Part shown: one piece after another, positions 6 to 13,223 of the stretch
Layout: each line of letters opens with the position of its first letter
Position numbering within the stretch: position 1 is the stretch's first letter
From: Myxococcales bacterium
GTDB lineage: Bacteria; Myxococcota_A; UBA9042; JABWCM01; BTVJ01
Length of the DNA: 64,000 nucleotides
Reading direction: 5' to 3'
Assembly (NCBI GenBank): GCA_045863395.1
Contig: BTVJ01000012.1
Location: forward strand, 1-64,000
The notes under the pieces: model-generated
Databases searched by the model: none
What the model saw: only the letters and a program-made list of their open reading frames with translations
Told to the model about the DNA's origin: nothing
Made by a program: the position numbers and the translations under genes

Positions 6-929
6 TCAGAGCAGATACGGAGTCAGCTCGTCGTCGCCCCAGCGCTCCAGGTAGTCTCGCCGCGCCCCGAGGCAAGCCCCTCCCCGAAAGGCGCACCCCT
101 CGCAGCGGCCGGTGTACGTGGACGGGCTGATCACCGAGTCCCACAGCGCGAAGCGGGACCCCGGAGTCACCACGAGCACGCGGTCGTCTCGCAGGTCGTG
201 CACGTGGTCCTCATAGCCCCGCAACATGCACCGCGGGATGTGGCGGGAGACGACCCGCACGCCCAGCGCGCGGCCCCGATCCATGGCTCCCGTGATCCCC
301 GCCCGCATCTCGGAGACGCGCGGAAGTGACTCCGGGAAGGCAGCGTTCCGATCCGTGAGGGACACGAGCCACAGGGCAAAGTCCCCCACACCCCTCGCAG
401 CCCAGAAGTCGACCATCGCGGGCAGGTGCTCCCAGGTGTCGCGCTTGACAATCAGGTCCGCGACTGGTCTCTGTGCCGCCGCCACGAGATTCTCAACGCC
501 GCGGACAGCCAGCTCGAACATCCCTGGCCGCCGCATGATGGCCTCGTAGAGCGCCGCCGTGTGCCCCATGAGCGAGACATTGAAGCGGGTGACCCCCGCC
601 TCGACCGCCTCCCTGACATAGTCCGGGTAGGAGTACATCAAGGCGTTGGAGGAGACCTTGACGCTGGTGAACCCCCGGTCTCGGCACCACCGCACGAGGG
701 GCAGCAGGTCCTTGCGCATGGTCGGCTCGCCCCCCCCGAACGCAGCGGCCCGGGCGCCCGCCTCCCAGGCACCCCGCAGCTCACCGAGGATCTGCGCGGT
801 GGTCATGTTCGTCTGCCGCTGCGCGTCGTGGATGGAGCAGTAGTCGCACCGCACGTTGCACTCGTAGCCCATGATGACGTCCACCATGACGTCGCTCATG
901 TCCCGAGAGAGAGCCCTCGCCTCAGACAT
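6..929 (-). CDS. Radical SAM protein (HxsC-like, single domain)
   Basis: CNVRCDYC motif, GGGEPT, later RHIPRC and C-terminal CEGCAFRGGACLG. Start moved from the track's 1046 to ATG 929 (MSEARALS), which overlaps the upstream stop at 922-924. Confidence 0.9.
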   Translation of the reverse strand: MSEARALSRDMSDVMVDVIMGYECNVRCDYCSIHDAQRQTNMTTAQILGELRGAWEAGARAAAFGGGEPTMRKDLLPLVRWCRDRGFTSVKVSSNALMYSYPDYVREAVEAGVTRFNVSLMGHTAALYEAIMRRPGMFELAVRGVENLVAAAQRPVADLIVKRDTWEHLPAMVDFWAARGVGDFALWLVSLTDRNAAFPESLPRVSEMRAGITGAMDRGRALGVRVVSRHIPRCMLRGYEDHVHDLRDDRVLVVTPGSRFALWDSVISPSTYTGRCEGCAFRGGACLGARRDYLERWGDDELTPYLL

Positions 930-3204
930 TGGCGGCCTCCACGGGGATCGGCGGCGCATACTCCCGCCCGAAGTCGAAGAAGCCGCCGCACCCCAGGCTG
1001 TGGGCGCAGGTGGCACACTCGGGCACGCGCACCCGCCGCTCCCCAAGGTAGTTGCCGAGATTCACCTGCTCGTCCCACACGAAGACCATGGTCCGCCCAA
1101 GCTTCTGCAGGTCCGCGAGCACGTACCGCTCCAGACCAGGGAAGAGGCACGGCTGCGCGTTGACCACGAAGATGCGCGACCTCTCCCCGTACCGCTCGAT
1201 GATCCGCCTCACCTCGGCCGCCGCCTGCTGCGGGGGTGGGACGATGTCCGACTGCGCGTTGCCAAAGGGCGTCAGGAACTGGTAGTTCACCTTGCGCACC
1301 CCGAGCTCCCACAGGAGATCCGCATACTCCTGCAGGTGCGCCACGTTGTTCTTCGAGATGGTGATGTTCACGCCGAAGTCGACCCCGGCGGGCAGCACCC
1401 GCACAGCGGTCCGGATCCCCGCCACGGTCTCGTCGAAGGACCCGGGCGCGCGCGTGATCCGATCATGAATCTCCGCCGTGTGCCCATGCAGCGAGATGAG
1501 CAGGCTCGTGACTCCGCTGCTCAGGAGGCGCAGCGCCTGAGACTCGTCCCCGAGCTTGCGCCCGTTGGTCGTCACGTTGACCTGCGAGTACCCCAAGGAC
1601 CGCGCCAGGGCCACCGTGTCGTTGAGCTGCGGGTGCAGCGTGGGCTCGCCGCCGTCGATGTCCAGAGACCGGATCCCCGCCTCCCGGTGCTCCCTCAAGA
1701 TGCGCTCGATGCGCGGCCACGCCACGAACTTGCGGATGCGGTCTCCGGTGGCGCAGAACTCGCAGTTGTTCACGCAGCTATAGGTGATATTGAAGATCAC
1801 CTTGCGCTGGCGCGACGCCTGGATGGTCTCCTCCAAGGCACCGGTCGCCGCCTCCAGCCACCCAGGCGGGATCGCCGGCGGCACGAAGGCGGGCCGGTGC
1901 TGAAACAAGGAGCCGTCGGTGGAGTCGGCGCCGTCCTCGGTGGTGAGCCCCAGCTCCAGGCACTGATCGTGCAGCGGCGTCCCCTTCAGGGGGGTGGCGA
2001 ACTGTACGGCGGGCTGGGCGCCGTAGCTCTCGTGCAGGTGCCAGGCGTAGCGCAGAGTCTCGAGGACGTCCTCCCGCGTCTCCCACGGGAAGCCCACGAT
2101 GAAGTGCACGAGGAGCGGCACCCCCACCCGGGCGCACGTGGCGGCGACCCGCTCCACCTCCCGGGGGTCGAGCCGCTTCGCGATGGGCCCCTGGAGGGCG
2201 CCGGCGTTGCCGCTCTCAACGCTCACGGACAGCAAGGTCACGCGGCCGGCCATCTTCTCGATGGCGGAGTCTCTGAGGTAGTCCGCCCGCAGCCCGTTCG
2301 GGAAGTCGTAGCGCAGGTCGTATTGCTCGAACAGCCCGAGGAGCTCCTCGAAGTCGGGGCGAAGGTTGGCTATCTCGTCCATGACGAGCAGCTTCTTCGC
2401 GCCCAGCGCCCGCGCCATCAGGAAGACCCAGTGCCGGAGCGCGGCCAGTGGGACCGCCCGGTAGGGTTTGCGGCCCGTGAGCTGCCACCCCGGGTTGCTC
2501 GCGCAGAAGATGCAGCGGTGGACGCACCCGCCGCTGGTCATGAGCGGCAGGGTGGTCGCGTCGACGCCGAAGGGGTTGGACCAGCGGTCCCTGAAGCAGC
2601 TCCGCACGAAGGCCCGCAGGCGCCCGGTGTCGATGGCCTCGAGGAGGGGCATCGGCGGCGCATGGCCGCTGGGCCACGGCCTCGCCGGCTCGTCCAGGCA
2701 GCGGCGCGAGCCGGCGAGGTCGAGCAGGCGCTCCGGCTGGCTGAAGGTCTCGTCCCCCGCGTAGCGGATGATGGCGTCGAGCCCCGGCAGGGCCTCGAAC
2801 ACCCGCTCGGGCTCGTACCCCATGACGTGCATGCCCCCGAAGTGGCAGTCCGCGAGCACCAGGGGCGCGGACGGGAACCGCGCGCGCAGGGCGGCGACCA
2901 GCTCCACCGTGTGCGGCTCCGGGCGCCAGGCCCGCAGGAACGGCGTGTTGCCGATGACCACCACGTCCGCCGTCGGGGGCAGCGCGGCCAGCACCGCCTC
3001 GTTCGGCACGCCGAGCAGGAACCGGTCGCCGTCGTAGTGGCGCGCGGAGCCTGGCAGCGCGAAGGCGTCCACGACCCGCACACCCCACCCGGCCCGGGCG
3101 ACGAGGGCGGCGCTGGCGAGGAGGCCCCAGTCCGCGAAGTACGGGTAGTCGATGAAGTCGCTCCCGATGGAGAGCGGCGGGTTCACGAACAGGGCGATCC
3201 TCAC
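922..3204 (-). CDS. B12-binding radical SAM fused to a second, HxsC-like radical SAM domain
   Basis: N-terminal cobalamin-binding-type region (VNPP...GLL...VRVVDA...FGGMH), TSGGCVHRCIFC and FIVGFPWET (class B pattern). Second domain ITYSCVNNCEFC, DGGEPT, NAQPC, CATCAHSLGCGG. GTG start with GGAGGG RBS. Confidence 0.9.
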   Translation of the reverse strand: MRIALFVNPPLSIGSDFIDYPYFADWGLLASAALVARAGWGVRVVDAFALPGSARHYDGDRFLLGVPNEAVLAALPPTADVVVIGNTPFLRAWRPEPHTVELVAALRARFPSAPLVLADCHFGGMHVMGYEPERVFEALPGLDAIIRYAGDETFSQPERLLDLAGSRRCLDEPARPWPSGHAPPMPLLEAIDTGRLRAFVRSCFRDRWSNPFGVDATTLPLMTSGGCVHRCIFCASNPGWQLTGRKPYRAVPLAALRHWVFLMARALGAKKLLVMDEIANLRPDFEELLGLFEQYDLRYDFPNGLRADYLRDSAIEKMAGRVTLLSVSVESGNAGALQGPIAKRLDPREVERVAATCARVGVPLLVHFIVGFPWETREDVLETLRYAWHLHESYGAQPAVQFATPLKGTPLHDQCLELGLTTEDGADSTDGSLFQHRPAFVPPAIPPGWLEAATGALEETIQASRQRKVIFNITYSCVNNCEFCATGDRIRKFVAWPRIERILREHREAGIRSLDIDGGEPTLHPQLNDTVALARSLGYSQVNVTTNGRKLGDESQALRLLSSGVTSLLISLHGHTAEIHDRITRAPGSFDETVAGIRTAVRVLPAGVDFGVNITISKNNVAHLQEYADLLWELGVRKVNYQFLTPFGNAQSDIVPPPQQAAAEVRRIIERYGERSRIFVVNAQPCLFPGLERYVLADLQKLGRTMVFVWDEQVNLGNYLGERRVRVPECATCAHSLGCGGFFDFGREYAPPIPVEAANV

Positions 3205-3216
3205 GGTCCCTCCATC

Positions 3217-4047
3217 TCAGACGCTTGGGGCGCAGGCCAGCCACGCGACCGCGCCGGCGACGAGGCCAGCAAGGCGCTGCCACCGGCGGAGCACCGCAGC
3301 GCGCATGGCCAGGGCCGCGGGCCCGGCGGCGAGCGTCACGGCGGCGAGGGGAGCCGCGGCCAGCGCGACCGCCAGCGTCGGCGCCGCAGCGAGCAGGGCG
3401 ATGATCGCACCGGCCCCGAGCAGCGCGACCAGGGCAGACACCACACGTGGCCCGAAGCGCAGCCAGGTCGTCCGGATCCCGTCCGCGCGATCCGCGACGC
3501 CGTGGGCCGCCTCGTGCACGAGCTGGTTCTGCAGCAGCACGGCGACGAAGCCCGCCAGCAGGAGCGCTCCGTCGCGGGTGAGCTGGGCGCCGCCGAGCAA
3601 CGCGAGGGGGGCGAAGATCCACCCGTTGGCCAGGGTGCCGATCACGGGGCGGCGCTTCAGACGCGGCCCGGCGGAGTAGAGCAGGCCACCGGCAAGCGAC
3701 CCCAGCGCGGCGAGTGCGGGCCCCAGCCCGTTGAGCGCCGCGGCGGTGAGGGCCCCGGCAGCCGAGACCCCCAGCGTCCCCTTGAGCACCGCGGCGCTCG
3801 CTCCCCACGGGGTGCTCCTCCCCCCGCGCGCGCCCCCCTCGTCCTCCCACTCGTTGACGCCATAGGCGAAGGCCAGACAGCCAGCCGCTGCCACCAGGGC
3901 CGCAGAGAAGGTCGCCAGCGGCGGACCGTCTCCAACCGACAGGAGTGGCAGGGGCAGGAAGTGAACCCAGTCGCGCACCCGCACGAAGCGCACGAGCGCC
4001 AACGCCGTTACGGGCGCCTCCCGCGCGGGAGCCATGGGTTCCGTCAC
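3217..4047 (-). CDS. UbiA prenyltransferase-family membrane protein with degenerate Asp motifs
   Basis: Multi-TM; FVRVRDW, YGVNEWED, LLYSAGPRLKRRP and ADRADGIRT follow the UbiA layout. Start at GTG 4047 (GTGA overlap with upstream stop) or ATG 4035; the track's extension to 5403 is spurious. Confidence 0.75.
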   Translation of the reverse strand: MTEPMAPAREAPVTALALVRFVRVRDWVHFLPLPLLSVGDGPPLATFSAALVAAAGCLAFAYGVNEWEDEGGARGGRSTPWGASAAVLKGTLGVSAAGALTAAALNGLGPALAALGSLAGGLLYSAGPRLKRRPVIGTLANGWIFAPLALLGGAQLTRDGALLLAGFVAVLLQNQLVHEAAHGVADRADGIRTTWLRFGPRVVSALVALLGAGAIIALLAAAPTLAVALAAAPLAAVTLAAGPAALAMRAAVLRRWQRLAGLVAGAVAWLACAPSV

Positions 4048-5093
4048 CACGACAGCGCCTCCCAGACCGCCGAAAGGTCGGGCTTCAGCAGCAGGTGGTT
4101 CTCCACGTAGGGCGAGATGGTGCAGTCGCCGCAGGGCGGGGTCGTCAGCAGCGGGTGGGTCTTCGCGGGCCGGTCCAGGTCGGCGATGGGCACGCCGTCC
4201 TCGAACGGGACCATGCAGCAAGGCGTGGCGCGCCCGTCGGGGAGGATGGTCACCACATACCGCCCGGCGGGACACACCTCCCGGAGCCGCGGCCTCACGC
4301 CCGCGGTCATGAGCCGCAGATACGCAGTGGAGTTGCCCACCGGGCGGCCCGCCTGCTTCCACGCCAGGAGCCGCCGGAACACGTCGGTCGCCTGCTCCCA
4401 CGTCAGGCGCCCGTCGAACGCCCTGCCCTTCCAGCCGTCCCGGACCTCCACGGGCTGGAAGAAGGCTCTCATGCCGAGCTGCTCCGCGACCCGCAGGGGC
4501 TCTTCGATGGCGTGGAGGTTGCCGGTGTGCACCGGGCAGATCACCGCGAGCCGTGGGCCGCCTCGCCGCCTCAACGCCTCCAGGCCCGCGAGGGTCCGAG
4601 ACCAGGACCGCTTGCCCCGGATGCGCTCGTGGGTCGCCTCGTCCCCCTCCACCGTGGTCAGCACGAACTGGGCTGGTCCTACGTCGTCCAGGCGGTCGGC
4701 GAGGGTCAGCGCGTTGGTGACGACGCTCGTCACGAAGCCCAGGTCCACCGCCCGCCGGACCACTGCGCCGAGGTCCTCTCGCAGGAGCGGCTCCCCACCG
4801 GAGATGCTCAAACGGAACGTACCGCCCCGACGGAGCCCGGCGAGCAGGCGCAGGGTCGCCTCCGTGTCCAGCTCCCGGTCCGCGTGCCGCGGGAAGTCGC
4901 AGTAGCGGCACCGCAGGTTGCATCGCAGCGTGATGAGAAAGGTGACGGCGGACCACACGTTGCGCCCGGTGACCCGTGCGGCGGCGTGGCGCAGCAGCCC
5001 GTGCCCCAGTGTGAGCGGCCGCTGCAGCGCGCCTCGCAGATCGCCGTCCCCCAGCCCCACTGTCTCCGCCAGCCCCATCGGTGTGCCTGCCAT
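4044..5093 (-). CDS. Radical SAM protein with twitch/SPASM-type C-terminus
   Basis: ITLRCNLRCRYC, ISGGEPLL, C-terminal CPAGRYVVTILPDGRATPCC...CGDC. Confidence 0.9.
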   Translation of the reverse strand: MAGTPMGLAETVGLGDGDLRGALQRPLTLGHGLLRHAAARVTGRNVWSAVTFLITLRCNLRCRYCDFPRHADRELDTEATLRLLAGLRRGGTFRLSISGGEPLLREDLGAVVRRAVDLGFVTSVVTNALTLADRLDDVGPAQFVLTTVEGDEATHERIRGKRSWSRTLAGLEALRRRGGPRLAVICPVHTGNLHAIEEPLRVAEQLGMRAFFQPVEVRDGWKGRAFDGRLTWEQATDVFRRLLAWKQAGRPVGNSTAYLRLMTAGVRPRLREVCPAGRYVVTILPDGRATPCCMVPFEDGVPIADLDRPAKTHPLLTTPPCGDCTISPYVENHLLLKPDLSAVWEALSW

Positions 5094-5194
5094 GCCTGGT
5101 GAACCACCCGGAGGAGTTGTGCATCTGACTACCGGCGCATGAGGCCGGCGAACTCAGCCTAACACAGTGCGGATTCCCAGGACAGCGCCCCAAA

Positions 5195-6457
5195 TCACGG
5201 AGCTGGCGCCGCTGGGGCCACCGGCTCCCAGGAACACTCGGTCCCGGCGAGCACCACGGGCTTCGACCGGATCCCCTCGAGGGGCCACGTGAGAGACCGC
5301 ACGCCACTGCCGGGTGGGAGCTCCCCCATGTCCTTCTCCATGGCGATGTCCTGCCCGCCGTGGCGCACGCTGAGCACCGCCTTGCAGCGCCCCAGGTCTC
5401 CATACAGGTTCAGCGCCTTCATGTGCAGCTCGTAGCGCGGACCCTCCGGGCCCTCCACCTCGACGACGTCGGAGGACATCATCACCTGGCGACAGGACGC
5501 TGGCAGGCGGCCACCACCGGCGCACTTCGTCGGGTCTCCGGTGGCGATGCCGACGCAGTGCTGGCGGATGGCCTCCGACGGGACGCGCGCGCACACCGCT
5601 GCGTCCTGCTTCGCCATGCCGTGCAGGATCCAGAAGCTGGCGCACACCTCGGCGTCTGCGCTGCCCTCCTCGCAGGAGGGCTCGCCGCCCGCGGCAAGGA
5701 GCCGGCAGGTGCGGCCCACATTGGAGGCGTCCGCATCGTCACAGTCGTACTTGCCGGTAGCCCCGCCGACGCACAGCGCCCGGAGCGTGCCTGCCGGCAC
5801 GCCCGCGCAGGCGCCCCCATCCTTTGCGAGCACCGCCCGCCGGAGCGTGGCGAGGGTGAGACACTCCTCGGAGCTCCCGACCCCCTTGGCGGACGCACAC
5901 CGCTTGGGGTCACCCGTCGACGCCCCCACGCACCCGAGGTCCAGCGCCCCCGCCTTGCACTCCTCCGCCTGGCGTTTGAGGGCGTCAATCAAGATCGCCT
6001 CGACCTCTCCCTCCTTCTCTTCGACCTTGGCACGCGCCTGCTCCGCCTCCCGGCGGGCCAACGCGAGCTGCTGCTGCGCCAGGGAGAGCCGGTCGAACTG
6101 GATGCCGCTCTCACAGTCGGAGGTGCCCCCTTCGGGAGTTGCGGCGGGTGGCAGGGCTTTGCGCTGCGCCTCCAGCTCCCGCGCCCTGGCGGCCCGCTCC
6201 GCTGCCACGAGGTTGGCCGGCTCCGGCTCGGCCTCGGGGGCCGCAGGCGCCGCCGCGGCACCCGCCGGGGATGCTCCCACCGCGGCTCCCTCCGCCGGCG
6301 TGCCGTCCGTCGAGGCTCCCGCCGCGGGGGCTCCCTCCAGGGACGGCCCCTTCGCCACGGGTGCGACCGGAGGCGGCGCCGGAGCCTCCGCCTTCTTGCA
6401 CGCAGCGAGGGACGCCACCAGCCCGAGGGCTGCCAGGCAATGCACGGGGTGTCTCAT
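5195..6457 (-). CDS. Cys-rich lipoprotein
   Basis: Lipobox LAAC after a hydrophobic leader, Ala/Pro linker, coiled coil, repeated D-x3-C-x2-V-x5-R-x2-C units. ATG 6457 overlaps the upstream TGA (ATGA). Confidence 0.8.
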   Translation of the reverse strand: MRHPVHCLAALGLVASLAACKKAEAPAPPPVAPVAKGPSLEGAPAAGASTDGTPAEGAAVGASPAGAAAAPAAPEAEPEPANLVAAERAARARELEAQRKALPPAATPEGGTSDCESGIQFDRLSLAQQQLALARREAEQARAKVEEKEGEVEAILIDALKRQAEECKAGALDLGCVGASTGDPKRCASAKGVGSSEECLTLATLRRAVLAKDGGACAGVPAGTLRALCVGGATGKYDCDDADASNVGRTCRLLAAGGEPSCEEGSADAEVCASFWILHGMAKQDAAVCARVPSEAIRQHCVGIATGDPTKCAGGGRLPASCRQVMMSSDVVEVEGPEGPRYELHMKALNLYGDLGRCKAVLSVRHGGQDIAMEKDMGELPPGSGVRSLTWPLEGIRSKPVVLAGTECSWEPVAPAAPAP

Positions 6458-8328
6458 GAGGAGCCTCCTGGGGGCGCAACTGCACGGATCTCGATGGTCG
6501 CAGAGTCGTGCCCGCCCGTCGGGGCGGCCACCGAGGGCGGGTGGGTCAGGCGCCGGATCCCCCGCCCGCCGAAGCGCGCAACATACCCTCGCTGGATCCC
6601 TCTGCAAAGCCCGCGGTGCGAGCACCCGTCACACTCCTCGACCCAGCGGAACGCGGCGCCGTCCGGGTGGTCCGGCGAGAAGCCGTGCTGGACGAAGCGC
6701 GGGTCCCCCCCGAGCACGCAGGGAGGCACCCCGCACGTGCCGTCCTGCCCGCCGAAGGGGACGCCGAGGGCGACGCACTGCTCCAGGGCGGCGCGGAGGG
6801 CGGGGCCGACCGCGTCGAATGGGGCCACCCCGTCGTCGTAGCGGGTCGCCGCCTCCGTGATGGCCGCCGCCGCCGACCACACGATGCGCACCCTCTCTCC
6901 CCACCGCTCGTGCACGAACGCGGGGAAGCCCGGGGTCGTCTCCAGGTTGAGGCCCGTGATCACGTGGTTGACCAGCAGCTCCAGCTCCGTCTCGCGCACC
7001 ATGCGGTCGAGGGCGCTCACCGTGCGTGCCCAGTACCCGTCCGCCTGGGTGATCGCGTCATTGACCCTCGGCGCCTGGCTGTGGAGGCTCACGAGCGCCC
7101 GGGTGAGCCCCGCGTCCACCAGCCGCGGCAACAGGTCCCCCGCCGCCAGGTGCACGGCGTTGGTCTGGAGCTCCACCCGCACCATCCCCAGCATGCGCGC
7201 CTCCCGCACCACGTCGGGCAGCCACGGCACCAGGGTCGGCTCCCCACCCGTCAGGTTCAATGACAGAGCACCCTGGGCCCGCAGCGCCGCGACCTGCGAG
7301 AGCACCTGCTCCCGGGTGGGCGGCGTCCAGTCGAAGTCCACCCAGCAGAAGCGGCAGCGCTGGTTGCAGGCCCAGTTGACCCGGAGGTTCGGCTCGTCCC
7401 CGTCCAGCGGAGACTCCGGCGCCTGGACGACCGTGAGCTGCGTCCGCTGGCCCCGGTCCACGCCCCCGAGCTGCCCCCGGATGGCCGCCGTGGCCTGCTC
7501 CCCGGGCGGCTCCGTCGGGAGGCCGCCACCAGCGTACCGTGCGGGGAAGCCCGGGCACCGCGAGACCAGGGCACACTTCGCGCAGGCCGGGGCACGCACG
7601 CGGCCGCCGTCCGTGGACCCGGGCGACGGCCCGAGGCTGGCGAAGAGCGCCGTATGGACGGCGACGAAGCGGTCGGAGAAGGCGCACGGGGGCGGGCACC
7701 ACGCGGGCTCGAAGCGGTGATCCATGCGGTGCTTGCGACACCGGGCCGCGGCCCGCGCCAGGGGTGCCTCGAAGCGCGCGTAGGCGGCGCCCTCGACGGG
7801 TACGAAGAGCCGCACGGCGTCGGCCCCCGCCTCCGCCGCGCGGTCCACGAGGGCGCCCAGGCCATCCACCGTGTCGGCGGTCACGGGCAGACAGATGCCG
7901 ATGCGAGCCCCGAGGCGCGCCAGGTTGGAGAGGCCCTCCCACGTCCTGCGGAACCCGCCCGGGTCGCGCGAGAGCCGGTCGCTCTCCTCCTCCGCCGCCG
8001 ACAGCAGCGTGACCCACGCCCGCGTGAGCCCGGCCTCGACCAGCGCGCGTGCGCCCGGCTCCCAAGACGCCACGGTCGCGTTCGTCTCGACCTCCACCCC
8101 CTCGAAGCCCAAGCGGACGGCGGTCTGGATCAGGGCGGGGAGGCGACGGTCCAGCAGCGGTTCGCCTCCGGTGAAGCGCACGACGATGGAGCCGTCCTCG
8201 CGGCCTTGGCGAAGCTGCTGCTCGACCTGCTCGGTGGGGATGGCGCTCGGGCGTGTATCACGCAGGGTGCAGAAGGTGCACGCCTGGTTGCAGAGCCGGT
8301 GGAGGCGGATTGTCAGGACCAGAGACAC
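6454..8328 (-). CDS. Tandem double radical SAM protein (paralog A)
   Basis: Two CxxxCxxC motifs ([18 protein letters not shown]), each followed by TGGEP, a PPC motif and CxxCxxxxxCxG. Confidence 0.92.
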
Positions 8329-8400
8329 CGAGGGCTCCTCGCCGCCATCACCCGGGGAGCGGTGGAACGGCCAGCGGGGCGGCAGACGGCGTTGACGACG

Positions 8401-8709
8401 CTACCAGGAGCCGTGGGACCCGTGGCTGCCGTGGGACCCGTGGGAGCCGTGGGACCCGTGGGAGCCGTGGGACCCGTGGGAGCCGTGGGACCCGTGGCTG
8501 CCGTGCGACCCGTGGGAGCCGTGGCTCGCGTGGGAGCAGTGCTGCGCCAGGAGGGGATCGGCGTCCGGGTTTGCCCCGTTGAGGAGCTGGCTGCCGTTGA
8601 GGTCATCCGCCTGCTTGCGGACGATCTTCTCCTCCTCGCGGGAGAGGAACGCGTCGACTCGGCGCTCGCGCACCGGGAGCTTGCTGCTCGTCTTCCGAGA
8701 CTTCGTCAT
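8401..8709 (-). CDS. His-Xaa-Ser repeat RiPP precursor (HxsA-like)
   Basis: 102 aa: 56-aa leader ending DPLLAQ, then HCS-HAS-(HGS)13-W. GAGGA RBS, ATGA overlap with the upstream stop, flanked by radical SAM genes. Confidence 0.9.
8407..8541 (-). repeat. 15 x 9-bp coding tandem repeat (HxS triads)
   Basis: Plus-strand units ggagccgtg / ggacccgtg / gctgccgtg and variants, counted directly. Confidence 0.95.
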
Positions 8710-10616
8710 TCGGATTCCTCCGCCCTCACGCTGGAACCTGTCGCCTGAACTGTGCGCTTGCTGGACGCCGCCAACTGAACGGGGAGTCTAGCAGCGCCGT
8801 CCGGACGCGTCAATGCGGGCGGATCGATCAGCGGTCGAATGCCACGGTCACCGAAGGTGGCGACGTAGGACCGCTGGAGGCCGCGGCAGATCCCTCGGTG
8901 GCTGCACCCGCCACAGGCCTCCGGGAACACGAAGGAGCCGCTGTCCTCGTGGCCCGGCTCGAACCCGCGGGTGACGAAGCGGGGGTCGCCACCGAGGACG
9001 CAGGGAGGCACCCCGCAGGTGCTGTCCTGCCCGCCGAAGGGGACACCCAGCGCGACGCACCGCTCCAGGGCCTCGCGGAGCACCGGGCCCGCCTCGTCGA
9101 AGGGCACGATGGAGTCGTCGTAGCGCTGGGACGCCTCGGTGATCGGCGCCGCGACGGACCAGGTGATCTTGACGCGCCCTCCCCAGCGGCCGTGCACGAA
9201 GTCCACGAAGGACACCGTCGTCGCCAGGTTGCGGCGCGTGATGACGTGGTTGACCTCCAGGAGGAGCGTCGTCCCGACGAGCCTGTCCACCCCCGCGACG
9301 GTCCGCACGGCGTCGCCAGGGCTCTGCGTGATGGCGTCGGCGACCTCTGGAACATGGGAGTGCAGGCTGACCAGCACGTCCGTGAGCCCTGCGTCCACGA
9401 GGCGCTGTACGAGCGCGTCGGTCAGGTGTGTGCCGTTGGTCTGGAGCTCGATGCGCTCGAAGCCTAGTGCGGCCGCGAGGCCCACGGCGTCCGGGAGCCA
9501 CGGGACCAGCGTGGGCTCGCCTCCGGTCAGGCTGACGGCCCGGGCCCCCCTCGCCGCGAGCTCCCCGAGCTGTGCCAGCACCCGCTCCCGGGTCGGCGGG
9601 GTCCAGTCGAAGTCCACCCAGCAGAAGCGGCACCGCTGGTTGCAGGCCCAGATCAGACGCACGTTGGGCTTGTCACCGCCCGGATCGTCCATCTGGACGT
9701 GGCGCACCTGGTTGCGCGCCCCCCGGTCCACTCCGCCGAGCTGCCCGCGGATGGCGGCCACGGCCTCCTCGCCGGGGGGCGCCCCCGGGAGGTCGCCTGG
9801 ACGGGCCGCCACGTACCGAGAGGGGAAGCCGGCGCAGCGGTCGGCGATGCCACAGGCCGCGCAGGCGGCCACACGGACGCGCGGATCGTCGGTCCCGCCG
9901 GGGTCTGCGCGCAGGCTCGCGAAGAGCGGCGAGTGCACCCGCACGAAGCGCTCGGAGAACGCACAGGGCGGCGGGCAGTACGCGGACTCGAAGCGGTGAT
10001 CCAGGCGGTGCTTGCGGCACCGGGCGGCGGCCTTGCCCAGCCCTGCCTCCAAGGCGGAGAGCGCCGCCTCCCCCCGGTCCGTCACCGCGTAGAAGCGCAC
10101 CGCGTCCAGCGTCGGCAGCTCCGCCGCGCGGTCGATGAGCGCCGCCAGCGACGCGACGGTCCCCGGGAGCACCGGCGTACAGAGCCCGATGGTGACACCC
10201 GCGGCGGCGAGCGCCCGGGCGCCGGCCCAGGTGCGCGCCGCGCCCCCTTCATCGCGCGTCACCTGGTCGTTGAGCGCGTCGTCCGCCGCGTGCAGAGTGA
10301 CCCAGGCCCTGTCGAGCCCCGCCTCGACGAGCGCCCCGAGGACCGCCGGATACGTGAGCAGCACCGCGTTGGTCTCGATCTCGACGTGCTGGTAGCCCAG
10401 GTCTCGGGCGCGCCGCACGAGCCCCGGCAGGCGCCGGTCGAGGGTCGGCTCGCCCCCGGTGAACCGCGCGATGGTCGCACCCCCCGCTCGCGCGGAGGCC
10501 AGCTCCGACAGCACCTGGGGCGTGGGGAGCGCTTGGGGCACCGAGTCGCGCAGCGTGCAGAACGTGCAACCCTGGTTGCAGAGGCGATGGAGGCGGACGG
10601 TGCAGACGAGACCCAC
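8706..10616 (-). CDS. Tandem double radical SAM protein (paralog B)
   Basis: LCNQGCTFC and ACNQRCRFC motifs; colinear with 6454..8328, sharing [22 protein letters not shown] and [16 protein letters not shown]. Confidence 0.92.
   Translation of the reverse strand: MGLVCTVRLHRLCNQGCTFCTLRDSVPQALPTPQVLSELASARAGGATIARFTGGEPTLDRRLPGLVRRARDLGYQHVEIETNAVLLTYPAVLGALVEAGLDRAWVTLHAADDALNDQVTRDEGGAARTWAGARALAAAGVTIGLCTPVLPGTVASLAALIDRAAELPTLDAVRFYAVTDRGEAALSALEAGLGKAAARCRKHRLDHRFESAYCPPPCAFSERFVRVHSPLFASLRADPGGTDDPRVRVAACAACGIADRCAGFPSRYVAARPGDLPGAPPGEEAVAAIRGQLGGVDRGARNQVRHVQMDDPGGDKPNVRLIWACNQRCRFCWVDFDWTPPTRERVLAQLGELAARGARAVSLTGGEPTLVPWLPDAVGLAAALGFERIELQTNGTHLTDALVQRLVDAGLTDVLVSLHSHVPEVADAITQSPGDAVRTVAGVDRLVGTTLLLEVNHVITRRNLATTVSFVDFVHGRWGGRVKITWSVAAPITEASQRYDDSIVPFDEAGPVLREALERCVALGVPFGGQDSTCGVPPCVLGGDPRFVTRGFEPGHEDSGSFVFPEACGGCSHRGICRGLQRSYVATFGDRGIRPLIDPPALTRPDGAARLPVQLAASSKRTVQATGSSVRAEESE
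8785..8813 (-). promoter_or_regulatory. Putative sigma70 promoter for the precursor, internal to the upstream gene
   Basis: Minus-strand TTGACG (8813-8808), 17 bp, TAGACT (8790-8785), ending 75 bp before the precursor ATG. Confidence 0.65.
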
Positions 10617-10628
10617 GCTGACTCCCGC

Positions 10629-13223
10629 TCAGGGCTTGACGATTCGGTATCTGATCGCGTGCTTGCCGCCGTCGTGGGCCTCCCAGGCGACGGCCACGAC
10701 GCCGTCGGTCCGCCGGACCAGCGCCGGGTGCTGGTGCGAGCCGGGCAGCCCGAGCGAGGCTTGGGACGGATCCGTGAGGACGGCGCCGTCCGTAGCCACC
10801 CGCCGGGTGTAGACGGCCCGGTCTGGCCCGGCCCCCGGCCGCGCGGCCCACGCGACCACGAAGCTGCCGTCTCCCTGAGGAGCGACGGCGGCGCCGACGG
10901 GCTCGCTCCCGCCCCCCTTGGAGACGATCTGCGTGGCGCAGGCGTCCCCCACCTGGGACTCCAGGCAGGCGAAGCGGACGCCGTTCGCCAAGGAGCTCAA
11001 GTCCCCCACCCAGACTGCGCGCGCCGCCCCCGTGGCCGGGCTCGGCGCCACGGACGGATCTCCGAGGCCGGACAGCGCCGTGCTGTCCAGGGTGACCGGG
11101 GGCACCGTCAAGGACCCGTCCGGGGCCAGGCCGACCGCCGCCAGGGCCTGGACGACGCCCGTCTCCTGGCAGCAGGGCGGCTCGAGGCAGTCGCCGACGC
11201 ACACGGCTGGCTGCGCAGTGAGGCGCCGGCCCACGACCCAGGCGCCACCGTTGGGCGTGACGGCCAGCGCAGGGTGGAGCGCTTGCTCCTTGCCCCCCGG
11301 GTCGAAGGCGAGGGCGACCTCGGTGACCGGGGAGCCGTCCGGCCCCAGGCGTCGCTGGAGCAGGCAGCGCTCGCCGGTGCACTTGGCCCCGGTGGACTCC
11401 CACACGACCAGGTAGCCCCCCCCAGGGAGGGCACCGACCGCGGGACGCCGGTTCTCGCCACCCGGGGCGCTGACCGCCGTGGGCCCGGCGCTCGCTCCGC
11501 CGAGGACGACGGCCCGGACCGCTGAGCCCTGATCCATGGAGGTCCAGGCGACCACGTACCGGCCGTCTGGGGATCCGGCGACAGCGGCCTCGTCCTGGTT
11601 CGTTACGCCGTCCAGGCTGGTGACGGCCTGCTCGGCGCCGAGCGGGTTGGCGGCCGCGTCGACCGTGCGCGTGACGACGACGCTCGTGGCGGCGACGGTG
11701 CGCGTCCATGCGATCACCGCCCCCCCGCCCGGCAGGGCCCCGGCGGCCGGACGTGAGACCTCGAGGAGCGGGTCGGCGTTGACCTGGACGGGCCCATCGG
11801 GGACGCAGCCGACGCTCCCGAGGCAGAAGCTCCCGGCCGGGCAGGCGAAGGGGGCGCTCCACTCCAGGAAGCCAGCGCTGCCGAGCTCGCAGACCCGGAT
11901 GGCCGTGCCGTCGATGCACTCCGCCTGGCCGGCCACGCAGGCGTCCTTGCCGCAGACCCCCGCGCCCTTGCACACCTGGCCGAGCTCGCACGTCCCGGCG
12001 GGCGCCCACTTCATGAAGCCGCTCGGCTCGAGGACACAGACCAGCGTCTGGTTGCCCTCGACCGTGCTGCACACCTTGGTCCCCTCGACGAGGCACTGGT
12101 TGGAGCCGCAGGATCCCGCACCCTTGCACACCTGGCCCGGGGGGCACGGCGACGGGTTGCTCCACGCCGGTTCGCCGGCGAGGTCGAGGCAGGTGACGGT
12201 GGAGGACGCGCCGCTGCACTGCTTTGCCCCCGGCGTACACACGTCCCCGCAGCCGGCGTCCGGCTCGCAGAGGCCCTCGCAGACCAGGGGGTCGCCCCAA
12301 CGCAGGAAGCCGCCATCGCCCTGCTCGCACACCGAGACGTGGCCATCGTCGATGCAGGTGACCTGCCCCGCGAAGCTGCACTCGTCCTCGCCGCAGGCGC
12401 CCCCCTTGCAGACCGCGGCACCACCGCACGGCGACGGCGCGCTCCACGAGAGGAAGCCCGCCGCGTCGGCCTCGCACGTGATGCTCTGGGAGACTCCGTA
12501 GCAGGCGGACATGCCAGCGTGGGGGCACGCATCCTTGCCGCACTGGCCGTTGCCCTTGCAGACATTGCCTGCGGGACAGGCTTGCTGAGGGCCCCAGGTC
12601 AGGAAACCATCCTCGGCGGCAGCGCAGATCGTGTAGGCAAGGGAGTCCAGGCTGCAGGCCAGGGAGCCCGAGGCGGGGCACTCGTCGACGCCGCAGACGC
12701 CGCTCCGACAGAGCTGCCCCGGCTCACAGGCGGTCTCCACGAGCCACGTGAGGCACCCGTCCTGGCCCTCTCCGCACACCAGGACCACGGGGATGGCGTC
12801 GGGCGTGCACACCCGCAGCCCGGGGGTCACGCAGGGCTCCGCGGGGCACGGGTCGACCACGTCGATGGAGGCGTCCGGGACGTCCGGCGTGTCCGGTCCG
12901 GTCTCCGCAGCGTCGTGCGCATCCCCGAGCACATCGGGGTCCGGCACGTCCGGGGTGGGACCCACGTCCGCGCCGTCGTCCACGTCGAGGAGGGCGTCGC
13001 CGCCGTCCGGCTGTGGCGCCACGTCCTGGCCGTCGGCGCCCCCGTCGGCAACGACGTCGGGCGCAGCGTCAGCACCGGCGTCGGCGGTGCCATCCGCGCC
13101 CTGGGCGTCAGCCTCGGACTGCGTGCCGTCCGCGCCGGCGTCGGCGTTCCGGGTGAAGGTGGTGCACCCTGCGGCGGCGCCGAAGAGGACTCCGGCGAGG
13201 ATGCACTGGATGACTTGCCTCAT
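10629..13223 (-). CDS. Large Cys-rich repeat lipoprotein
   Basis: Lipobox AAGC, acidic linker, about 7 repeats of W-x5-C-x2-G-x2-C-K-G-x-G-x-C-G-x-D-x-C, C-terminal beta-rich domain with repeated (V/I)-x-W strands. Start moved to ATG 13223 (MRQVIQC). Confidence 0.8.
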   Translation of the reverse strand: MRQVIQCILAGVLFGAAAGCTTFTRNADAGADGTQSEADAQGADGTADAGADAAPDVVADGGADGQDVAPQPDGGDALLDVDDGADVGPTPDVPDPDVLGDAHDAAETGPDTPDVPDASIDVVDPCPAEPCVTPGLRVCTPDAIPVVLVCGEGQDGCLTWLVETACEPGQLCRSGVCGVDECPASGSLACSLDSLAYTICAAAEDGFLTWGPQQACPAGNVCKGNGQCGKDACPHAGMSACYGVSQSITCEADAAGFLSWSAPSPCGGAAVCKGGACGEDECSFAGQVTCIDDGHVSVCEQGDGGFLRWGDPLVCEGLCEPDAGCGDVCTPGAKQCSGASSTVTCLDLAGEPAWSNPSPCPPGQVCKGAGSCGSNQCLVEGTKVCSTVEGNQTLVCVLEPSGFMKWAPAGTCELGQVCKGAGVCGKDACVAGQAECIDGTAIRVCELGSAGFLEWSAPFACPAGSFCLGSVGCVPDGPVQVNADPLLEVSRPAAGALPGGGAVIAWTRTVAATSVVVTRTVDAAANPLGAEQAVTSLDGVTNQDEAAVAGSPDGRYVVAWTSMDQGSAVRAVVLGGASAGPTAVSAPGGENRRPAVGALPGGGYLVVWESTGAKCTGERCLLQRRLGPDGSPVTEVALAFDPGGKEQALHPALAVTPNGGAWVVGRRLTAQPAVCVGDCLEPPCCQETGVVQALAAVGLAPDGSLTVPPVTLDSTALSGLGDPSVAPSPATGAARAVWVGDLSSLANGVRFACLESQVGDACATQIVSKGGGSEPVGAAVAPQGDGSFVVAWAARPGAGPDRAVYTRRVATDGAVLTDPSQASLGLPGSHQHPALVRRTDGVVAVAWEAHDGGKHAIRYRIVKP

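Follow-up and report, generated by a model that had tools for sequence, protein, structure and literature searches.

According to the available text of Li et al. (2026, PMC13128918), the His-Xaa-Ser (HXS) system of Escherichia coli requires HxsB, HxsC and HxsD, all three, to process HxsA. The SHRSS motif gains +8 Da (+C/-4H), for which both serines and the histidine are needed. To block the entry of phage DNA, the system depends on a signal peptide and a peptidoglycan-binding domain. The canonical system is a four-gene set in more than 99.8% of cases; 99.7% of the systems are found in Pseudomonadota, and it is present in 27% of Klebsiella. The +8 Da chemistry is unsolved, and reconstitution in E. 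coli failed (PMC13128918). Neither Myxococcota nor HxsA4 is mentioned in the main text. Here, a related locus of a Myxococcales bacterium (assembly GCA_045863395.1; genome of 8.8 Mb, 97% complete) is analysed. The window, that is, the whole stretch of 64,000 nucleotides (nt) under study, is the start of contig BTVJ01000012.1 (C12). Between positions 6 and 13223 it holds nine genes, g1 to g9, which are probably the precursor and accessory part of an HxsA4 peptide-maturation pathway that is dispersed over the genome and a near-core trait of the class. The HxsA4 family is already catalogued in NCBIfam (NF038313, with the companions HxsC4, NF038332, and HxsD-like, NF038315) and the E. coli HXS form is characterised; new is the dispersed variant with unnamed enzymes. 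The initial annotation of this DNA had regarded His-Xaa-Ser systems as bioinformatically defined, a view overtaken by the characterisation of the canonical system in 2026 as anti-phage (PMC13128918). Its statement that no cluster of this architecture had been described has held so far: a literature search, with subscription journals largely outside its reach, found no paper on HxsA4, HxsC4 or this myxobacterial branch.

All nine open reading frames (ORFs) lie on the minus strand: a Cys-rich lipoprotein (g1), a double radical S-adenosylmethionine (SAM) protein (g2), the precursor (g3), a second double radical SAM protein (g4), another lipoprotein (g5), a radical SAM protein with a short Cys tail (g6), a UbiA-family protein (g7), a radical SAM fusion (g8) and a single radical SAM protein (g9). 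Position, order and spacing agree with the initial annotation, with intergenic gaps from g1 to g9 of 12, -4, 72, -4, 101, -4, 12 and -8 nt. Its count of eight radical SAM domains was also confirmed, by eight intact CxxxCxxC motifs (two each in g2, g4 and g8, one each in g6 and g9) and by PF04055 above the cut-off in all five radical SAM proteins. As g2 and g4 are paralogous (61% identical), the eight domains come from four distinct radical SAM proteins. The locus resembles those of ribosomally synthesised peptides with post-translational modifications (RiPPs) of the His-Xaa-Ser type and has, as proposed earlier, enzymes beyond the four-gene system.

The predicted HxS precursor was recovered by the NCBIfam Hxs models. 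The protein g3 (8401..8709, minus strand, 102 amino acids, aa) is a member of HxsA4, with 119.4 bits against a cut-off of 55 over model positions 1-93. It is the sole HxsA4 match and the only HxS precursor in the genome; a second precursor was rejected, as a looser scan gave only shadow frames among the output inspected. A leader of 56 aa is followed by the core HCS-HAS-(HGS)13-W (8404-8541), with 15 H-x-S triads, 14 overlapping S-H-x-S motifs and a His-Gly-Ser composition that includes no Arg or Lys. H-x-S repeats with S-H-x-S are shared with the E. coli system (HxsD-HxsB-HxsC-HxsA, TIGR03976-03979), as are true HxsB and HxsD and HxsC-like enzymes. Unlike the E. coli protein, g3 is short, its 15 triads are contiguous, and it has neither a hydrophobic signal stretch nor a peptidoglycan-binding domain; with the canonical HxsA model TIGR03979 it scores 23.1, below the cut-off of 121.65. 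The best 13-residue hydropathy of the leader is 0.1, taken from a hydropathy window and not from a signal-peptide predictor. Leaders of some relatives do have a hydrophobic stretch (1.3-2.0). The only Pfam match in g3 is Collagen, which is due to the repeat.

Core genes of the pathway are encoded on other contigs. HxsB (TIGR03978) is present on C121 and C89 with 529 and 464 against a cut-off of 370. Contig C15 codes for HxsD (TIGR03976, 58.7 against 50) and an HxsD-like protein (NF038315, 67 against 41), C9 for HxsC4 (NF038332, 536 against 500) and C66 for a HExxH hydroxylase above the cut-off. Queries with proteins from related Hxs loci had led to orthologs on other contigs, and 35 proteins, 18 of them candidates from this genome, were then scored against the models. 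Instead of a compact hxsD-B-C-A operon, the parts are distributed over C12, C9, C15, C89 and C121. HxsC-like domains above 100 bits number 16 in 13 ORFs of the genome, six of them in the window; the profile was built only from enzymes of relatives, and the ORF filter excluded another C9 gene. In comparison with E. coli HXS, this genome has no true HxsC, dispersed genes and at least 16 HxsC-like domains, to which a class B fusion, a UbiA module and a near-core distribution are added. The initial annotation had seen a self-contained, exceptionally equipped cluster, far more heavily equipped than known variants. This did not survive the genome-wide view: HxsB, HxsD and HxsC4 are on other contigs, the window has only 6 of 16 HxsC-like domains, and comparable sets of enzymes occur in various parts of the phylum. 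Most probably, the contribution of the window is the substrate plus accessory maturases, for a pathway with a core that acts in trans.

The distribution was studied in all 107 genomes of the class. For single-protein queries, the thresholds were chosen by the analyst (1e-80, 1e-45, 1e-30, 1e-8 and 1e-6), and a miss means that the protein was not found with that query. HxsA4 exceeded the cut-off in 83 of the 107 genomes and was detected in 99 at E 0.001. HxsB was present in 90/107, including 63 of 68 high-quality genomes, and occurred in all 17 families besides the three largest. The fusion g8 was found in 76/107 genomes, the double radical SAM protein in 38/107, g6 in 28/107 and g7 in 19/107. 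None of 14 control genomes passed the cut-off for either HxsA4 or HxsB. Outside the class, 202 genomes of the phylum were sampled; HxsA4 was present in 40 and g8 in 14. Twelve of these 14 genomes were HxsA4-positive, and the other two have precursors below the cut-off, located on short contigs or at the end of a contig. A precursor within 25 kb of g8 was observed in five of the 14. The UbiA subfamily was detected in 3/202 genomes, all HxsA4-positive; of 10 UbiA-bearing genomes picked by hand, 8 exceed the HxsA4 cut-off. In the loci inspected, precursors often stand alone among housekeeping genes. A tree of 53 HxsB sequences has the families f3 (6/6) and f5 (8/8) as single clades. Cultured bacteria carry the pathway: Paraliomyxa miuraensis (L254) has HxsA4, g8, the double radical SAM protein and both g6 and g7. 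In two Nannocystis species and Polyangium jinanense (L234, L240, L255), HxsA4, g8 and g6/g7 are present, and no double radical SAM protein was found by this query.

A set of 72 distinct precursors, g3 included and a few truncated, was extracted for comparison. The cores are nearly invariant: 64/72 start with HCS, and 66/72 end with W (55) or HGQW (11). The median number of triads per precursor is 16 (range 8-58), and glycine occupies 1171 of the 1292 middle positions. Where precursors reach 49-58 triads and end in HGQW, a different type of radical SAM protein is encoded beside them (L102:4878-5594, L014:9723-10355, L183:9586-10257). In two relatives, a carbamoyltransferase directly follows HxsA4 (L089:10250-11881, L101:1800-3404), and in L089 it is followed by serC, which also flanks the cluster in the window. 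Lipoproteins with the MopE-type putative metal-binding repeat PF11617 directly precede HxsA4 in L093:7479-9590 and L101:4099-6276; such repeats are common in Myxococcota, and the observation is weak. A membrane protein that looks by eye like a prepilin peptidase is encoded beside HxsA in Omnitrophota and Elusimicrobiota (L013:12245-13399, L016:1968-3188). It has no Pfam or NCBIfam match and no counterpart in this genome, and was rejected as a candidate. The leaders in L013 and L016 contain FLxSEEG, similar to a Flp-pilin leader.

Further genes accompany the core genes in trans. Directly after the true HxsB on C89, an HxsB-like protein without CxxxCxxC is encoded (G000:C89:7760-9142, L039:2761-4143, 234 bits), which is a possible pseudo-enzyme partner. 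Just after the hxsD pair on C15, a twin-arginine-like exported protein of no family is encoded (L036:11808-12377), a candidate export or carrier partner. Similar-looking genes are located beside hxsD in L001, L011, L014, L168 and L184; the L001 protein has no tblastn match in this genome. At the head of the HxsC-like gene cluster on C9, a SAM-dependent methyltransferase is encoded (G000:C9:153836-155575, L035:10837-12576).

A sigma-70-like promoter consensus (TTGACG-17-TAGACT, with TG before the -10 box) is located at 8785..8813 on the minus strand, within the 3' end of g2 and 76 nt upstream of the g3 start; it is a consensus match only. One such site was found in 14.5 kb, compared to 0.1 +/- 0.4 in shuffled sequences. 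Among 50 precursors, 12 have a promoter-like site upstream, compared to a mean of 1.7 and a maximum of 5 in 30 resamplings. Contigs of an RNA library span the precursor as well as parts of g1, g2, g4, g5 and serC; such contigs can neither rank expression nor prove transcription. One of them (8450-8766) covers the precursor and ends at 8766, near the promoter-like site; it comes from one run, as contigs only, and is no proof of a transcript start. A scan of the sequence found no terminator-like site at the locus, and Pfam and NCBIfam scans recognised no protease or transporter in the cluster.

The possibility that the cluster extends past the left edge of the window, raised by the initial annotation, can be dismissed. 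The first 55 nt of C12 match exactly and uniquely the start of contig C96. Beyond this overlap, the next gene on C96 is on the opposite strand and codes for a membrane protein, read as RarD-like from its sequence. Because the overlap leads to this unrelated gene, there is no continuation: the cluster ends at g9, inside the window, with the C12/C96 join based on the 55-nt overlap alone. On the side opposite g9, the cluster is flanked by serC.

Four window proteins, g2, g4, g8 and g9, contain HxsC-like domains. Their scores with HxsC4 (NF038332) range from 90.6 to 130.7, all below the cut-off of 500, and NCBIfam has no model of their own. The double radical SAM protein g2 (8706..10616, minus strand, 636 aa; best NCBIfam match HxsC4, 121.7 against 500) has in each half CxxxCxxC, GGE and the C-terminal CxxC...C.G motif. 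The second one, g4 (6454..8328, minus strand, 624 aa), was assigned by NCBIfam and motifs. It shares 61% identical amino acids with g2, compared to 45-50% with the nearest orthologs, and the two genomes of the same order have one double radical SAM ortholog each with 49-50% identity. By sequence comparison, g4 probably arose by local duplication. The tree leaves the node open, with g2 and g4 not recovered as sisters. The single radical SAM protein g9 (6..929, minus strand, 307 aa; best NCBIfam match HxsC4, 90.6 against 500) is the last gene of the cluster. Its orthologs adjoin g8 in L152, L154, L157, L171 and L175. A complex prediction of g9 with the HxsD of C15 scored 0.31, the mark being 0.32. 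We are fairly confident that g2, g4, g8 and g9 serve the HxsA4 pathway. Among relatives, one genome codes for a fusion of a double radical SAM protein with an HExxH-like domain, and another for a triple radical SAM protein (L047:9917-12709, L142:10308-13130).

Triceptides are RiPPs with three-residue cyclophanes, formed on aromatic-Xaa-Xaa triads by SPASM maturases; a simple cyclophane corresponds to -2 Da. The window shares aromatic-Xaa-Xaa triads and radical SAM maturases with them. In contrast, the sole measured HxS change is +8 Da (+C/-4H) and not -2 Da, and the window enzymes are HxsC-like. No triceptide maturase model ranks first for any of them.

The fusion g8 (922..3204, minus strand) combines a radical SAM protein of the cobalamin-dependent type (class B fold, about aa 1-465) with an HxsC-like radical SAM domain (about aa 466-750), as seen with AlphaFold2 and Foldseek. 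The model has a predicted local distance difference test score of 93.8. It has an N-terminal Rossmann-type domain and a barrel with CxxxCxxC, as is typical of class B. For aa 1-465, Foldseek ranked AprD4 first, followed by MgmA and TokK; the class B structures TsrM and CysS were also found. A profile match to TokK covers positions 79-385 (E 9.7e-6). The Pfam B12-binding domain PF02310 had no match in g8 at E 0.01. Together with the class I cobalamin-dependent radical SAM enzymes TokK, TsrM and MgmA/QCMT, and with AprD4, g8 has the N-terminal Rossmann-type domain and the radical SAM barrel; it differs from them by its fusion to the HxsC-like domain and shares only 13-17% identity. AprD4, the best fold match, is a dehydratase, listed as unrelated in a review according to which methylating members of the class cannot be told from non-methylating ones by any clear structural feature (PMC12931638). 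Methylation by g8 is plausible from the predicted fold. The database contains 606 relatives of this type of fusion.

The proteins g6 and g7 form a module of their own. The radical SAM protein g6 (4044..5093, minus strand, 349 aa, start uncertain) has a short twitch-like Cys tail (SPASM 17.6 against 21.5). It is not HxsC-like, with 63.5 bits on the HxsC-like profile, which is background level, and it resembles generic radical SAM families of NCBIfam. The UbiA-family membrane protein g7 (3217..4047, minus strand, 276 aa) matches PF01040 with 38.7 against 34.2, scored on a 728-aa open frame that ends in g7. UbiA prenyltransferases have two acidic motifs that serve as Mg/diphosphate motifs. In an alignment with 14 orthologs, these keep NxxxDxxxD..KNP and HExxDxxED. 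In contrast, the first motif of g7 is without its second Asp and the KNP, and its second motif is short of two acids. In 46 related UbiA loci, which overlap the genomes of the distribution counts and include six Nannocystis, g6 shares the locus in 39, a strong Hxs-family radical SAM protein is present in 11, and no locus has a precursor within 8 kb of UbiA. L270 and L261 combine the double radical SAM protein, UbiA, g6, g8 and a g9-like gene, with no precursor in the retrieved stretch. The protein g6 is the fixed partner of g7, and g7 is an optional accessory. A prenylated or lipid-anchored peptide, as the initial annotation had envisaged, finds no support in the degenerate acidic motifs and the 0/46 loci with a nearby precursor.

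Both lipoproteins were recognised by a lipobox-like start read by eye. The repeat protein g1 (10629..13223, minus strand) has 864 aa with 54 Cys, and g5 (5195..6457, minus strand) has 420 aa with 19 Cys. Neither has a Pfam or NCBIfam family, and Atlas searches gave sub-threshold leads only. A repeat paralog of g1 is located on C21. The database holds two matches to g5, one being g5 itself, and g5 was found in 3/107 class genomes. Paralogs of g5 are encoded on C11 and C153, outside Hxs loci. A homology of g5 to exported proteins beside HxsA in L013 and L018 was discarded as unconvincing (best E 0.0055 among 28 sequences). With g5 in so few genomes, nothing marks the lipoproteins as conserved parts; the pathway membership of g1 and g5 is doubtful.

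The maturation may start with bulk production of the precursor, driven by a sigma-70-type promoter of its own. From other contigs, HxsB and the HxsD pair would act on the leader, a step demanded by the genetics of E. coli. The HxsC-like domains, six here and at least ten elsewhere, would then modify His/Ser repeatedly over the 14 overlapping S-H-x-S motifs. If the +C/-4H change of the E. coli SHRSS is taken as the model, the result would be a ladder-like, multiply cross-linked core. The ladder would be continuous because contiguous repeats make each Ser common to two S-H-x-S motifs. The class B fold domain of g8 may add a further change, most likely methylation, with the only Cys, that of HCS, and the Trp at the end as candidate sites. 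The g6 and g7 proteins would be an optional module. The weakest step is the product: perhaps it is a component that the cell makes constitutively, for example a rigid poly-imidazole scaffold that binds metal, which we propose tentatively; a defence effector ranks below it and seems unlikely. A constitutive role is favoured over phage defence because of the near-core retention, the dispersal, the missing export and anchoring parts, and the defence annotation by PADLOC, in which 0/22 window and flank proteins and 8/96 neighbours of other precursors matched. The latter are spread over six loci, and their types read as generic domains.

Several observations weigh against a dispersed, near-core HxsA4 pathway. 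No window enzyme reaches any Hxs cut-off, and no gene in the genome passes the HxsC model TIGR03977 (best 101-111 against 267.9). Three families supply 70 of the 107 class genomes, which are kin and not independent. HxsB is patchy, with 3/8 genomes in each of two families, and the one-contig, 97%-complete genome G064 has neither HxsB nor an above-cut-off HxsA4; the system is dispensable. The HxsB tree includes paralogs and mixed families for f11, f17 and f18. Of the 12 precursors with a promoter-like site, five belong to one family and one is g3 itself. The fusion g8 is usually located away from the precursor, and the PADLOC scan had no background control. The maturation of any HxsA4 system is read from sequence and analogy, and the metal-binding role is the weakest part of the deduction. 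It is difficult to see why one near-homopolymeric core should need so many paralogs, and some of these may act on other substrates. Defence is the sole tested function of any HxS-repeat protein. A concern voiced with the initial annotation was that the enzymes might routinely occur without an HxS peptide. This is mostly not the case, as g8 and the UbiA subfamily track HxsA4 genomes; two g8-bearing class genomes (67% and 77% complete) gave no credible precursor.

The matured poly-His core could act as a constitutive anti-phage system like E. coli HXS, binding incoming DNA and reaching the envelope by a dedicated route or by lipoproteins. No function other than anti-phage activity has been shown for an HxS-repeat protein, and E. 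coli HXS is likewise mostly chromosomal, 77% outside prophages (PMC13128918). The genome has HxsB and HxsD, g3 repeats the S-H-x-S motif 14 times, and hydrophobic leaders exist among the relatives. However, g3 itself lacks the hydrophobic signal and the peptidoglycan-binding domain, both required in E. coli, and its core is free of Arg and Lys. Unlike the four-gene canonical HXS, the genes are dispersed and near-core and agree with the families, and PADLOC, run without background control, gave no defence-island signal. We regard a defence system as rather improbable.

Some window enzymes could act on other substrates: the double radical SAM proteins could cross-link the neighbouring Cys-rich lipoproteins, and g6 and g7 could make a membrane lipid or a small prenylated compound, their genes being no more than co-located with that of the precursor. 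Each double radical SAM gene abuts a lipoprotein gene here, and the L045 ortholog follows a large exported protein. Moreover, g6 is not HxsC-like, and the UbiA loci have no precursor nearby and a strong Hxs-family radical SAM protein in only 11 cases. Yet g5 occurs in 3/107 genomes compared to 38/107 for the double radical SAM protein, the L046 ortholog has no lipoprotein directly upstream, and the genome-level co-occurrence with HxsA4 holds for g8 and UbiA. Other substrates are about as unlikely as defence. A self-contained cluster for a cross-linked, methylated and prenylated specialised metabolite unique to the lineage would fit the tight co-orientation of the nine genes, the class B fold of g8, the presence of UbiA and the other tailoring genes that adjoin precursors in relatives (carbamoyltransferase in L089 and L101, HExxH hydroxylase). 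It is very unlikely, with HxsB and HxsD on other contigs, enzyme families that are widespread, a nearly invariant core, no recognised protease or transporter in the cluster and degenerate UbiA motifs.

The preferred reading, a precursor and accessory locus of a dispersed pathway, shifts the interest away from the single cluster, which is not special, to a near-core pathway with unnamed enzymes and cultured carriers. A pure repeat substrate and several unnamed radical SAM families are available for the unsolved +8 Da HxS chemistry, and the cultured carriers make the HxsA4 pathway testable. As a bolder possibility, which we consider less likely than not, HCS-(HGS)n-W might be processed into a so far unrecognised housekeeping component of the cell in many Myxococcota: a ladder-like, poly-cross-linked His/Ser polymer, made in bulk by about twenty scattered radical SAM domains, with a possible use as a cofactor or a metal scaffold. 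The anti-phage HXS of E. coli might then be a slimmed-down, repurposed offshoot. A peptide-modification pathway that is retained by most genomes of a class suggests an unrecognised basic function.

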